A stretch of 64,000 bases of DNA from Candidatus Aenigmatarchaeota archaeon (GTDB lineage: Archaea; Aenigmatarchaeota; Aenigmatarchaeia; CG10238-14; SCSR01): positions 32,001-96,000 of the forward strand of contig JAVZHQ010000002.1 of assembly GCA_038998335.1 (NCBI GenBank), read 5' to 3'. Both the position numbers and the translations under genes were made by a program. The notes below the pieces were generated by a model, which saw only the letters and a program-made list of their open reading frames with translations, was not told the origin of the DNA and did no database searches. Shown one piece after another: positions 353 to 59,294 of this stretch. The number at the start of each line of letters is the position of its first letter. Positions within the stretch are counted from its first letter, which is position 1.

Positions 353-1549
353 ATGAAACAACTCTTGATTATTTTAATTATTCTAATTCTTGCTGTTGTT
401 CTTGTGGCTGGTTACTATTTTGGAATAGAACTTGAAATTTTTAGAGATCCGGGACAAATACTTTTTGAAGCAATAGAAAAGTCATCAAAAATTGACAAGT
501 ACAGAATTAGTTATTCTGTTGGAGGTAGTATAGCTTTAGGAAGTATGGAAGTTTCGGTTAACGGAGACGCAACAATAGTAAAATTTGAAAATAAATATAA
601 AACTGTAGCTAATGTTTCTATGCCAAGTATGTTTGGAACTGGCACTACTTCAACATATTCAGAAACTTATATACTTCCTGAAGGAAATGTAAAATGTGAA
701 AAAGCTTCTCTAATAACTCAGAGATACTATTGCGTGGAAGTCGAACCATCGACAGGCTTTTCCCTTGGGGAAAGCATTTCATTCTCACCGCAAGCTCAAA
801 TAAACTTGCTTAAAGAATGGATGGAGAAGGGCATAATAAGAGTTTCAAACTTGGGTGTAAAATACATAATAAACAGAAAGTGCAATAATCTAAAATTTGA
901 TGTAGACCTTAACAAACTCATGCAAAATGTTACAGGTGGCTTCACGATTAAAGAGGGAGAAGCAAGTTTTACGATTGAAATGTGTTTAGATAAAGAGTAT
1001 GGTATGGCTTTAGAAACAAAGTATAATATTTGGATTAAAAACTTAATGGGAAATGAGCTTGAGTTTAAAACAAACATAGAAGCAACGAAACTAAGTTATG
1101 ATGTTAGTAGAAGTGATGTTGAACTTCCTGTTCCTATTAGCGAAGTTAAATGGTTACCTAAACTTTCCATAATGAGTTCAGAGTGTGAGGCTAACTCAAA
1201 TCTAGTAAAAGTTACTGTTAAAGCTAAAAAAGATATGCCAACAGGTCAAGCTCTTTTGAACATAACATGGGATGAGTACAAAGTAGGAGAAGGATTTAAA
1301 ACATACAGCTTAACTTCTTCAACACCTTTTCCAGGTGCACGAAGCGGTGAAACTAAAGAATTAAGTTTTACTCTTCAATCTCCTCTAAAAGAAAGTGAAA
1401 TCTACACTATAAAAGTTAAAATTGATGGTATCGAATCTGATACAGATTTATGCTATACTTGGAGTACAAGCATATACTCTTTAGGTTCGATAACAAGTTA
1501 TATGACAAGAATTGCTGAAAAATTTAGAAATATCACAAAAATATTCTAA
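353..1549 (+). CDS. Membrane-anchored surface protein, possible LolA/LppX-like beta-sheet domain plus C-terminal Ig-like domain
   Basis: 398 aa ORF with N-terminal hydrophobic anchor, alternating beta-strand pattern and paired Cys. Fold assignment is inference. Confidence 0.55.
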   Translation: MKQLLIILIILILAVVLVAGYYFGIELEIFRDPGQILFEAIEKSSKIDKYRISYSVGGSIALGSMEVSVNGDATIVKFENKYKTVANVSMPSMFGTGTTSTYSETYILPEGNVKCEKASLITQRYYCVEVEPSTGFSLGESISFSPQAQINLLKEWMEKGIIRVSNLGVKYIINRKCNNLKFDVDLNKLMQNVTGGFTIKEGEASFTIEMCLDKEYGMALETKYNIWIKNLMGNELEFKTNIEATKLSYDVSRSDVELPVPISEVKWLPKLSIMSSECEANSNLVKVTVKAKKDMPTGQALLNITWDEYKVGEGFKTYSLTSSTPFPGARSGETKELSFTLQSPLKESEIYTIKVKIDGIESDTDLCYTWSTSIYSLGSITSYMTRIAEKFRNITKIF

Positions 1550-1553
1550 GAAT

Positions 1554-2660
1554 TTATTCCAGAAGTTTTCCGTTCTCCATTATTAGTTTTTTATCAGCGT
1601 ATACAAAGCTATTCTTCATATCCTTAAAGAAATCCCAGTGAATAGTGGAATCATTTTTTCCGCCAAAGTGCCTATTTCTTCCTATTGCTAAATGAACAGT
1701 CCCTCTAACTTTTTCGTCAATTATTATTAGCCCGCCAGTAATTTTTGCTTTCGGGTTTGTTCCTATAGCAAATTCTGCTATTCTATCCTTATCACCAGAA
1801 GCGTTTTCTAAAACCTCTTCAAAACATTTCTTTCCTTTCTTTATATCATATTCTACAACTTTTCCTTTTTCAAACCTAAACCAAACACCTTCTACCTGCT
1901 TACCATAATGCCACATGCATGGCAAATCAAAATAGATTTCGCCGTTAGCTGAATTTTCAACAGGAGCACAAAAAACTTCTCCTTCTGGCAAGTTAATGTA
2001 GCCAAAATTTTCTTTCTCAATTATTCCACAAGAATTTATGAATTTTCTTCCTCTAATCGAAAATTTCAAGTCAGTTTGCTCGCCAACTATTCTGATTTCC
2101 TTTGCGTTTTGCAATTTTTTAATTAGCATTTTATTATACTCATAAAGCTTGAAGTAATTCACTTTCATACAATCCCAGAAAATCTTCTCTAAAGTTTTGA
2201 AAGGAAGCTTTAAAGCCTTGGCTACTTCCTTGTTCGGAAAACCTATCAAAGCTGTTCTAAGCTCTTTTCTCTTTTCTCTTCTTTCTTTCCTTTCTCTTAT
2301 AGGCTTGGTTACTTTCCTTCTTATTTCAATTTTCTTCTGAGGCAATTGTCTTGCAATGAAAGGGTTTGTATCATCTATTATTATTTCAACATCAGCAATT
2401 CTTGACAAAACATCAGCAAGCCTAGGAAAATTTTTCAAGTACTTTATTTTTATCGAGTTGTAAGTTTTAAGTGCTAATTCATCGCTCCCGTAAAAAATTG
2501 CTGGCTGGGCTCCAACCTTAGAAGCTTCTAAAGCCAAAGCTTCAGCAAACTTTAAAGACTTTGGACCAGCGTTTATTATTGTAATATCTTTTTCTTTTAC
2601 CCCAAGATTAATTCTGATTATTGTTCTTGCTATTCTTTGGAGTTCTTCCTCGTGCAGCAT
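1554..2660 (-). CDS. Aminopeptidase, M29 family (AmpS/AmpT-like)
   Basis: Motifs NLPEGEVFCAP, IAEFAIGTNP, DEKVRGTVHLAIG, STIHWD. Confidence 0.92.
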   Translation of the reverse strand: MLHEEELQRIARTIIRINLGVKEKDITIINAGPKSLKFAEALALEASKVGAQPAIFYGSDELALKTYNSIKIKYLKNFPRLADVLSRIADVEIIIDDTNPFIARQLPQKKIEIRRKVTKPIRERKERREKRKELRTALIGFPNKEVAKALKLPFKTLEKIFWDCMKVNYFKLYEYNKMLIKKLQNAKEIRIVGEQTDLKFSIRGRKFINSCGIIEKENFGYINLPEGEVFCAPVENSANGEIYFDLPCMWHYGKQVEGVWFRFEKGKVVEYDIKKGKKCFEEVLENASGDKDRIAEFAIGTNPKAKITGGLIIIDEKVRGTVHLAIGRNRHFGGKNDSTIHWDFFKDMKNSFVYADKKLIMENGKLLE

Positions 2661-39222: not shown

Positions 39223-39316
39223 GGGCCTATAGCTCAGCCTGGTTAGAGCAATCGCCTTATATGGCTCGCTTTCGTGAGAAAGCGATAGGTCGAGGGTTCA
39301 AATCCCTCTAGGCCCA
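39223..39316 (+). tRNA. tRNA-Ile(TAT) with 19-nt canonical intron at 37/38 (39262..39280)
   Basis: GGGCCTA/TAGGCCC acceptor, GCTC/GAGC D stem, ATCGC-CT-TAT-A^A-GCGAT anticodon arm, central splice helix CTTA/TGAG, T arm GAGGG-TTCAAAT-CCCTC. Confidence 0.85.
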
Positions 39317-42276: not shown

Positions 42277-42906
42277 ATGCTCAAGAAATTTTTGGTAATT
42301 TTTGGAATATTTCTTTTTTCTTTTATTTCTTACTTGTTCTTAAGTAGTCCTACAGCTATGAGTGTTTCACAAACAAACCCAAACTTTTGGTTTCCTCTCA
42401 GCATTTCTATAACTTTTTTAATTGTTCTTTTGCTTCTTTTAAACATAGACGAAAGAAAACTAGCAGAAAAAGTAGGAATTCTGAAAAAAATAGAGGAGCA
42501 GGAAGCTATAGAAAGAGTAAGAGAGGTTAGAAAACAGTTTGGTCTTGAGAAATATTACGAAGAACTTAGAAGAGCTAGGGAGAAGGCTGAATCAATTTAT
42601 CATAATATAAAGAAAGAGTTTGAAAAAAATGAAATTAGTGGTTTAAAAGGTGATGAAGTTAAATTATTCTACGCAAAATCCATGGTTGACGAGCTTTATG
42701 GAGCTATGCACTATTTAAAACTTAAAAAACCGAACAAAGTAATAAGATACTTGGAAGATGCTAGAAGAGCTTGTGAAGAGTTAGGCTATTCTGACTTTGC
42801 TGAAGAACTCTGGCTTTTGCAAGGAAAGATGGAAGTAACTTATAATCAACAGAAAAAAATGCTAAAAGATATTCAAGAAAAAATGTGGAAACCCTTTAAT
42901 GAATAA
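42277..42906 (+). CDS. 2-TM membrane protein with helical tail (paralog of 41652..42236)
   Basis: Same architecture and motifs as the preceding gene. Confidence 0.65.
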   Translation: MLKKFLVIFGIFLFSFISYLFLSSPTAMSVSQTNPNFWFPLSISITFLIVLLLLLNIDERKLAEKVGILKKIEEQEAIERVREVRKQFGLEKYYEELRRAREKAESIYHNIKKEFEKNEISGLKGDEVKLFYAKSMVDELYGAMHYLKLKKPNKVIRYLEDARRACEELGYSDFAEELWLLQGKMEVTYNQQKKMLKDIQEKMWKPFNE

Positions 42907-43031
42907 TAGCGGGGGCACGATTTGAACGTGCGACCTTTACCCCAGACTTAAGTCTGTCCGGGTGTCACAAGAGCAGCCTTATGAGCCATTCGCAAAACTT
43001 CGGCGAGCACTCCAGGCTGCTCTACCCCGCT
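42907..43031 (-). tRNA. Initiator tRNA-Met(CAT) with three introns: 29/30 (42988..43000), 38/39 or 37/38 (42963..42978), 43/44 (42937..42957)
   Basis: Removing 13, 16 and 21 nt gives AGCGGGGTAGAGCAGCCTGGAGTGCTCGCCGGGCTCATAACCCGGAGGTCGCACGTTCAAATCGTGCCCCCGCTA (75 nt), with A1-U72 and three G-C anticodon-stem pairs. 4-bp central helices TCGC/GCGA, TCAT/GTGA and ACCC/GGGT with 3-nt bulges. Confidence 0.9.
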
Positions 43032-43161
43032 TTTACAACTTATATTAAATTTGATAGAAACATAATTTAAATACTTTTACCAATAGAGTGGTAATTTTTG
43101 CTTTATTTTTAACTTTGAAAGTTGTAAACCTAATTATTTACCCAAAAAACACTTTTTCATC

Positions 43162-59129: not shown

Positions 59130-59168
59130 TATTTAAGCTTAGTATTAATAATTTTTATAGGTTACGCT

Positions 59169-59253
59169 GCCCCTGTAGTCTAGCCTGGACAGGATAGAAG
59201 CTTGCGGTAAGAGTGAAAAGCTTCTGGCCCGGGTTCGAATCCCGGCAGGGGCA
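59169..59253 (+). tRNA. tRNA-Arg(GCG) with 11-nt canonical intron at 37/38 (59208..59218)
   Basis: GCCCCTG/CAGGGGC, A20, GAAGC-TT-GCG-G^A-GCTTC, CCGGG-TTCGAAT-CCCGG; central helix TTGC/GTGA. Confidence 0.9.
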
Positions 59254-59294
59254 TTAAAAATTTAAAATACCAGTATTAAAAATTGTTAGAGAAA

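Follow-up and report, generated by a model that had tools for sequence, protein, structure and literature searches.

The only initiator tRNA-Met gene that we found in this genome is divided into four exons by three short introns, and its precursor is very probably cut by a single alpha-type splicing endonuclease (EndA) at three motifs of the bulge-helix-bulge (BHB) type, with RtcB joining the exons. The gene is 125 nt long and lies on the minus strand of the window (the whole 64,000-nt stretch of DNA that was analysed) at positions 43031..42907, with the same bounds as in the first-pass annotation. The host is of the Candidatus Aenigmatarchaeota type (DPANN), the close relatives of its EndA being found in MAGs of Candidatus Aenigmatarchaeota, and its assembly comprises 1,009,365 bp in 9 contigs with 33% G+C. 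If the proposed pathway is right, the start of every protein would require a tRNA made by three cuts and three ligations, and the initiator tRNA may serve as a built-in reporter of splicing capacity.

Table 1. Parts of the interrupted initiator tRNA-Met gene with its candidate flanking signals, and the orthologous genes with four or five introns
Feature	Sequence	Positions	Strand	Description
Exon 1	window	43001..43031	-	31 nt; tRNA positions 1-29: acceptor 5' strand, D-arm, start of anticodon stem
Intron 1	window	42988..43000	-	13 nt; position 29/30
Exon 2	window	42980..42987	-	8 nt, positions 30-37 (9 nt if intron 2 is at 38/39); contains anticodon CAT
Intron 2	window	42964..42979	-	16 nt; canonical position 37/38
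Exon 3	window	42958..42963	-	6 nt, positions 38-43 (5 nt if intron 2 is at 38/39)
Intron 3	window	42937..42957	-	21 nt; position 43/44
Exon 4	window	42907..42936	-	30 nt; positions 44-73: variable loop, T-arm, acceptor 3' strand, discriminator A
TATA-like box	window	43063..43073	-	candidate promoter; 32-42 nt upstream of tRNA position 1
T-rich 3' trailer	window	42895..42906	-	candidate oligo-T terminator; abuts the stop codon of a convergent plus-strand ORF
Four-intron orthologue	L005 (G004)	1477-1622		four introns
Five-intron orthologue	L030 (G035)	742-921		five introns
Five-intron orthologue	L031 (G020)	1369-1523		five introns

A 7-nt acceptor strand opens the gene, and its complement followed by A closes it; no CCA is encoded in exon 4. 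Removal of the three intervening segments leaves a 75-nt product, the minimum free energy (MFE) fold of which is the full cloverleaf (-35.8 kcal/mol). Archaeal initiator tRNA-Met is characterised by A1:U72, three G:C pairs at 29-31:39-41 and A11:U24, and the spliced product possesses A1:U72, G29-G31:C39-C41 and A11:U24 as well as the anticodon CAT in a 7-nt loop (CTCATAA). The gene with A1:U72 is deduced to be the initiator because a separate elongator tRNA-Met, with G1:C72 and a canonical intron, is present in the genome (contig C1:405024-405132). A similar A/T box at roughly the same distance upstream of orthologues from several genera weakly suggests that the TATA-like box is a promoter in this AT-rich genome.

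The first-pass annotation had already described the locus as an initiator tRNA-Met gene with three introns of 13, 16 and 21 nt. The cloverleaf, the features of the spliced product, the Met(cat) call by ARAGORN and the orthologues all agree with this identity, and the exon and intron lengths of 31/13/9/16/5/21/30 are reproduced. The ambiguity of the boundaries that it pointed out is also borne out: 37/38 and 38/39 are both possible for intron 2, as are 43/44 and 44/45 for intron 3, the product being identical, and the internal exons are therefore of either 8 and 6 or 9 and 5 nt. The placements at 37/38 and 43/44 are favoured by the BHB rule and by orthologues in which the site is unambiguous.

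Standard tools did not recognise the gene, as the first-pass annotation had predicted, and this holds for both ARAGORN and the Rfam tRNA model. Within the window, three tRNAs are reported by ARAGORN in default mode and four by the Rfam tRNA model, none of them at the initiator locus; the latter gave no match at the locus at E ≤ 10 (42800-43150), nor among its 46 genome-wide matches at E ≤ 1. Four other Rfam matches in the same interval at E ≤ 10 (S774, SAM-II, BaMV_CRE and STnc410) were rejected as chance, all being far under their gathering scores. The anticodon CAT is absent from both ARAGORN lists for the genome (31 and 46 genes). When the orthologous products were spliced beforehand, ARAGORN identified tRNA-Met(cat) in 19 of 19, while for 16 unspliced intron-bearing initiator genes the default mode was right in 0, and the intron mode was right for one, wrong for seven and failed to detect eight. 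The apparent incompleteness of DPANN tRNA sets may hence in part reflect genes that are present and invisible to these two tools.

In its intron mode (-i), ARAGORN reports a different gene at the same bounds, namely a tRNA-Lys(ttt) that would have an intron of 29 nt, an extra arm of 26 nt and two mismatches in its anticodon stem. A reading of the locus as a class-II-like tRNA-Lys(UUU) with one intron, or as a tRNA of another identity, can be given practically no weight. Its two A.C mismatches in the anticodon stem and its long extra arm are foreign to lysine tRNAs, the genome has intact Lys(ttt) and Lys(ctt) genes at other loci, and the identity proposed by the same program differs among the orthologues (Lys, Stop, Leu, Phe, Pyl, Tyr and Ser). 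Moreover, the intronless orthologues fit the three-intron initiator parse base for base.

Other tRNA genes of this genome also appear to be interrupted. Three in the window, all on the plus strand (2698-2797, 39223-39316 and 59168-59254), are overlong for intronless tRNAs and were given inconsistent identities by ARAGORN (Ile(aat); Stop(tta)/Ser(aga); Pro(cgg)/Phe(gaa), respectively); they probably carry non-canonical introns. Counted by eye and by length, ~20 of the 47 tRNA loci of the genome look intron-bearing. Two further regions, C1:653838-654731 and C1:556995-557113, have a partial match to the Rfam tRNA model (model positions 9-63 at 653847-653902) and an 800-nt intron proposed by ARAGORN -i, and could represent a miscall, a split tRNA or a tRNA whose intron is very long. 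The canonical introns of the elongator tRNA-Met, tRNA-Trp and others contain TGATGA-like and CTGA-like boxes, which are possibly those of intron-borne C/D box guide RNAs.

A check for another initiator gene, recommended in the first-pass annotation, was made by local blastn, for which the spliced sequence, exons 1 and 4 and the anticodon arm served as queries, and returned this locus only. The spliced anticodon arm also matched 13 nt at C1:450372-450384, which we dismissed as chance since they fall within a long ORF of the opposite strand. That no second initiator gene was found in the 90%-complete assembly is consistent with a dependence of translation initiation on splicing. The DNA of the window occurs in hot-spring metagenome runs. 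Among the contigs of 4 runs the locus is identical in the probable source run, and a related strain in two other hot-spring studies keeps the intron-bearing sequence over 42951-43032 at the DNA level.

Our DNA search covered 60 relatives and the genome itself; matches were obtained in 47 of the 61 at E ≤ 10, and an initiator tRNA gene is present at all 30 returned loci (L013-L016, L018, L022-L026 and L028 were parsed by eye and the others by script). Ten of these genes are uninterrupted, eight have one intron, four have two, five have three, one has four and two have five. All genes with at least three introns belong to family f1, the window's own family, and about 14 different intron sites are used in this gene across the lineage. 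The same three introns are found in G001, G002 and G004 of the same genus (81-91% identity), with an extra fourth intron at 10/11 in G004. G003, also of this genus, has an intron at 13/14 alone, indicating fast intron turnover. With zero to five introns in the same gene, the lineage may provide a natural series for studying the gain, loss and mutual dependence of BHB introns.

Exon 1 is 90-100% identical among orthologues across the order, and the intronless orthologues L011, L017 and L019 (L008 too across this region) have exactly the junction sequence predicted for the present genome (G000). Pairing was counted from structure-aware parses of the D-, anticodon- and T-stems, as a MAFFT alignment of nine precursors misaligns G035 and part of G020. 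At the 14 pairs of these stems there are zero non-pairs in the 20 spliced products, and the T-stem, with three pair types at four of its five positions, has abundant double-sided change.

These data bear on the possibility that the locus is a decaying pseudogene, its insertions being junk and a working initiator gene residing in the unassembled ~10% of the genome. Such a reading would agree with the completeness of 90.4%, with the imperfect motifs of introns 1 and 2 (see below) and with a locus that is known here from DNA alone, none of the 11 runs listed being RNA. Still, we consider it very improbable. The exons are conserved while the introns diverge among orthologues, all five T-stem pairs are changed between G000 and G001 with pairing intact, the central helices of the intron motifs covary, and the spliced products are exactly 75 nt in 20 of 20. 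The three-intron gene is, moreover, the sole initiator locus found in G001 and G002 too. A functional gene, spliced at three BHB-type motifs, is thus the reading that we follow below.

The first-pass annotation had described the junctions as BHB-like, which is upheld by the central helices of 4/4, 3/4 (4/4 in the other register) and 4/4 pairs for introns 1, 2 and 3. A BHB motif is defined here by a 4-bp central helix and two 3-nt bulges on opposite strands, with the cut after the second bulge base; accordingly, the last six bases of the upstream exon are taken as four helix and two bulge bases, and the last six of the intron as four complementary and two bulge bases. Orthologues with unambiguous sites were used to calibrate the cutting rule, which rests on sequence rather than on experimental data. 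We scored 41 introns from 16 intron-bearing initiator genes: 22 have a 4/4 central helix, 17 one of 3/4 and two one of 2/4. When the 3' boundary is displaced, 3/197 attain 4/4 and 28/197 attain 3/4, and for shuffled introns the shares are 2.1% and 12.7%, respectively. The fit is therefore beyond chance, because the intron ends were set by the tRNA sequence alone, before motif scoring, and the helices form nonetheless.

In intron 1 the exon positions 24-27 (TCGC) pair with GCGA of the intron in a complete central helix. There is a 3-nt 3' bulge and the 5' cut site lies within a 9-nt loop, with no 5' bulge and no inner helix, and hence the motif is of the relaxed (bulge-helix-loop) form. The unconstrained MFE fold of the precursor already includes it. 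The motif of intron 2 is imperfect as well: at 37/38 its central helix has one U.U mismatch (3/4), both bulges are of 3 nt and the anticodon stem forms the outer helix. Same-genus orthologues have 3/4 or 2/4 in this register. The alternative placement at 38/39 has a 4/4 central helix and lacks the outer helix; the DNA does not separate the two readings, and our preference for 37/38 follows from three orthologues in which this site is unambiguous and from the anticodon stem acting as outer helix there. Intron 3 combines a 4/4 central helix (ACCC with GGGT), a 3-nt 5' bulge, a 4-nt 3' bulge and a 5-bp inner hairpin, and its outer helix of 3-5 bp is formed by the 3' end of intron 2 and positions 46-50.

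The motifs have been kept in the relatives through compensatory change. Ten orthologues have an intron at 29/30, and two pairs of its helix show double-sided changes, from T:A to C:G in L012 and from C:G to T:A in L031 and L026. At the 43/44 site, which is occupied in 8 orthologues, the inner hairpins of 3-9 bp are unrelated in sequence and all of them pair. In both five-intron genes every intron has a central helix of 3/4 or 4/4.

The enzymes for such a pathway are encoded in the genome. EndA is a single ORF of 188 aa (C1:649550-650113) with the domains PF02778 and PF01974. A broad-specificity enzyme of the (alpha-beta)2 or epsilon2 type, as expected in the first-pass annotation, is not what we found: the gene is a single one of the alpha type, with neither a second subunit nor a three-unit protein of ~395 aa. 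PF01974 and PF02778 have one match each in the genome at E ≤ 10, both in the same ORF, and a protein search for a beta subunit or paralogue returned none. The best solved relative is the homotetramer of M. jannaschii (1a79; E = 1.5e-29), and the EndA is probably a homotetramer too. Within family f1, 35 of the 36 relatives have an EndA match, and only G017 has two over the cut-off, both of about 190-210 aa.

We also observed that several genomes of families f2, f5 and f7 of the same order encode, besides an EndA of ~190 aa, an extra protein of ~400 aa with two tRNA_int_endo domains (e.g. G040:C4:8699-9190 and G050:C3:60001-60486). Family f1, with the most interrupted initiator genes, is without this two-domain protein.

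Compared with 1a79, the EndA has a 6-residue insertion between Tyr118 and His134, within VKLKRGPKAP (residues 122-131), which includes four basic residues. It aligns with loops of the N. equitans and ARMAN-2 EndAs, and its GPK is present in 75 of 77 aligned EndAs. The catalytic triad is incomplete, which speaks against the proposed cutting: Tyr118 and His134 are present, while Ala165 stands where M. jannaschii has Lys156, and 76 of 77 aligned aenigmat- and nanohaloarchaeotal EndAs have Ala or Ser there. Solved EndAs have an SVRK motif at the catalytic lysine, and those of N. equitans and ARMAN-2 keep this lysine. The near-invariant Gly-Pro-Lys of the loop might supply the missing catalytic lysine, and an apparently single-subunit EndA without the canonical residue would be an instructive case of how relaxed motifs are handled.

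RtcB is encoded at C1:~120.6-122.1 kb. Its gene is itself interrupted, within the conserved motif HFGY|GFPIGG, by an in-frame 18-nt insert (C1:120826-120843) that contains two TAA stops and agrees with the BHB rule, its central helix and its inner hairpin both being of 4 bp. Among the relatives (L124-L129), G004 and G035 have an 18-nt insert at this site, G020 one of 16 nt, G009 one of 20 nt and G012 one of 29 nt; in G034 the insert lies a few bases upstream, and G001 has none. Their inner hairpin is kept despite changed sequence, and the lengths of 16, 20 and 29 nt are not multiples of three. The rtcB message probably needs the RtcB ligase for its own splicing; our literature search found no paper on an rtcB intron.

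In the pathway that we propose, transcription would yield a precursor of ~125 nt plus leader and trailer, the single alpha-type EndA with its lysine-rich DPANN loop would cut at the three motifs, and RtcB would join the four exons into the 75-nt tRNA, to which CCA would be added later. Introns 1 and 3 would leave first and intron 2 last, because the canonical 37/38 motif needs a complete anticodon stem, which is present only after intron 1 has been removed; the outer helix of intron 2 is of 2 bp with intron 1 present and of 5 bp after its removal. The motif of intron 1 would require an open D-stem, as its central helix uses positions 24-27, and that of intron 3 an open anticodon stem, as its central helix uses positions 38-41. 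Both motifs are compatible in the raw precursor, where forcing the two of them costs 1.2 kcal/mol (-58.2 vs -59.4). In this constrained fold the last three bases of intron 2 before A38 pair with 46-48 as the outer helix of intron 3, a pairing that extends to 5 bp in G000 as judged by eye. However, the simple order is opposed by the intermediate that retains only intron 2: its canonical BHB conformer (-31.5) is 14.7 kcal/mol less stable than the MFE fold (-46.2), in which intron 2 is paired with the D-arm. Nor does the order seem to be obligatory, because intron 3 retains its central helix and inner hairpin when intron 2 is gone.

The pairing with the D-arm accounts for intron 2 in full: a single bulge base is followed by nine bases antisense to the D-arm, then by the four bases of the central helix and finally by two of the bulge (antisense core of 9-10 nt). 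Of the 10 orthologues with a 37/38 intron, 7 show complementarity of 7-11 nt to the D-arm, a level that shuffled introns attained in no more than 28 of 1000 trials; the intron sequence of L031 is unrelated and is paired with another segment of the D-arm. The 7 genes are exactly those that also have a 29/30 intron, a suggestive link between the two, drawn from 7 genes of three genera.

It is conceivable, though on balance unlikely, that intron 2 of the functional gene is recognised without a canonical BHB, through pairing of its core with the 5' strand of the D-arm, which would refine rather than replace the main model. The D-arm helix could either substitute for the missing inner helix beside the 5' cut site or keep the D-stem open for the motif of intron 1. 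Besides the complete account of intron 2 and the coincidence with the 29/30 intron, the dominance of this helix in the predicted fold of the precursor speaks for such a role. Yet four of the seven genes come from one genus and the association is statistically weak, the D-arm is invariant and thus compensatory change cannot appear, and L012, L021 and L026 have the 29/30 intron and no 37/38 intron. The pairing could also be a relic of intron origin.

A wider picture can be drawn only tentatively and seems to us rather doubtful as a whole: instead of being independent insertions, the three introns would form an interlocking, ordered system with intron 2 as antisense helper and with the canonical 37/38 motif forming last, in a lineage with up to five introns and one EndA that is without the textbook lysine, for which the loop lysine may substitute. 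The interlocking of introns is possibly a new feature.

Interrupted tRNA genes of this type are already known, and the present lineage is unusually intron-rich. Multiple-intron tRNA genes are described in Thermoproteales (Pyrobaculum, Thermofilum and Caldivirga; Sugahara et al. 2007/2008, as cited in PMC4033280 and PMC8450103), with a 'maximum of three' or 'up to three' introns per tRNA gene in the accessible text of these two papers. As far as these sources go, the resemblance lies in several short BHB-type introns that occupy both canonical and non-canonical positions and are taken out by EndA and a ligase, some of them so close together that one must leave before the motif of the next can form. 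In contrast to the Thermoproteales, which are Crenarchaeota having an (alpha-beta)2 EndA with a Crenarchaea-specific loop, we deal here with a DPANN archaeon and one alpha-type EndA, and orthologues in the window's family have four and five introns, more than the three stated in the available portions of PMC4033280 and PMC8450103. Our literature search, which covered sources outside the subscription journals, yielded neither an archaeal tRNA interrupted by more than three introns nor a report on tRNA introns of Aenigmatarchaeota. Judged from the sequences, the lineage thus appears to stretch the known limits in two ways, by five introns in one tRNA gene and by a single-subunit EndA without the canonical catalytic lysine.

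Three enzyme or splicing systems are close to the one proposed here. In the bioinformatic study of Kaneta et al. (2018; PMC5829648), the accessible text describes alpha4-type EndAs with an insertion in the C-terminal domain in several DPANN lineages, and 'L3'-loop EndAs that go together with a greater disruption of tRNA genes and with incomplete tRNA sets. The EndA of this genome fits the alpha4/'L3' description as it stands in that text (single subunit, ~180 aa class, N-terminal and catalytic domains), from which we infer that its loop corresponds to 'L3'. In the same portions of the paper, Aenigmarchaeota are named only in spelling out the DPANN acronym, with no gene-level account, and the loss of the catalytic lysine is unmentioned. 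The EndA of ARMAN-2 (Micrarchaeota) is, according to the available text of Hirata et al. (2012; PMC3488258), a three-unit epsilon2 protein of 395 aa that owes its broad specificity to an ARMAN-2-specific loop with K161. Going by that text, ARMAN-2 shares with our host the DPANN affiliation, introns with relaxed motifs and an insertion between the catalytic Tyr and His, but its enzyme keeps the catalytic lysine, whereas the EndA described here is without a canonical one.

For the splicing order, the parallel is the nuclear tRNA-Ile(UAU) of Cyanidioschyzon merolae, which has three BHB introns including one at 37/38; introns 1 and 3 were found by RT-PCR to be lost before that at 37/38 (Soma et al. 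2013, PMC3728597, accessible text). The order is the same as the one we propose, but there it was demonstrated by RT-PCR and here it is deduced from predicted folds and motifs. As far as that source describes it, the gene also differs in belonging to a eukaryote (a red alga), in having introns in the D-stem and T-loop and in not being an initiator.

A last observation concerns the 37/38 intron of L010 (G006; 1501-1628), a gene without a 29/30 intron. It holds an 8-nt stretch, GTTTGCGA, that is closely like the core TTTTGCGA of the 29/30 intron of G000, and this likeness hints at the movement of introns between sites.
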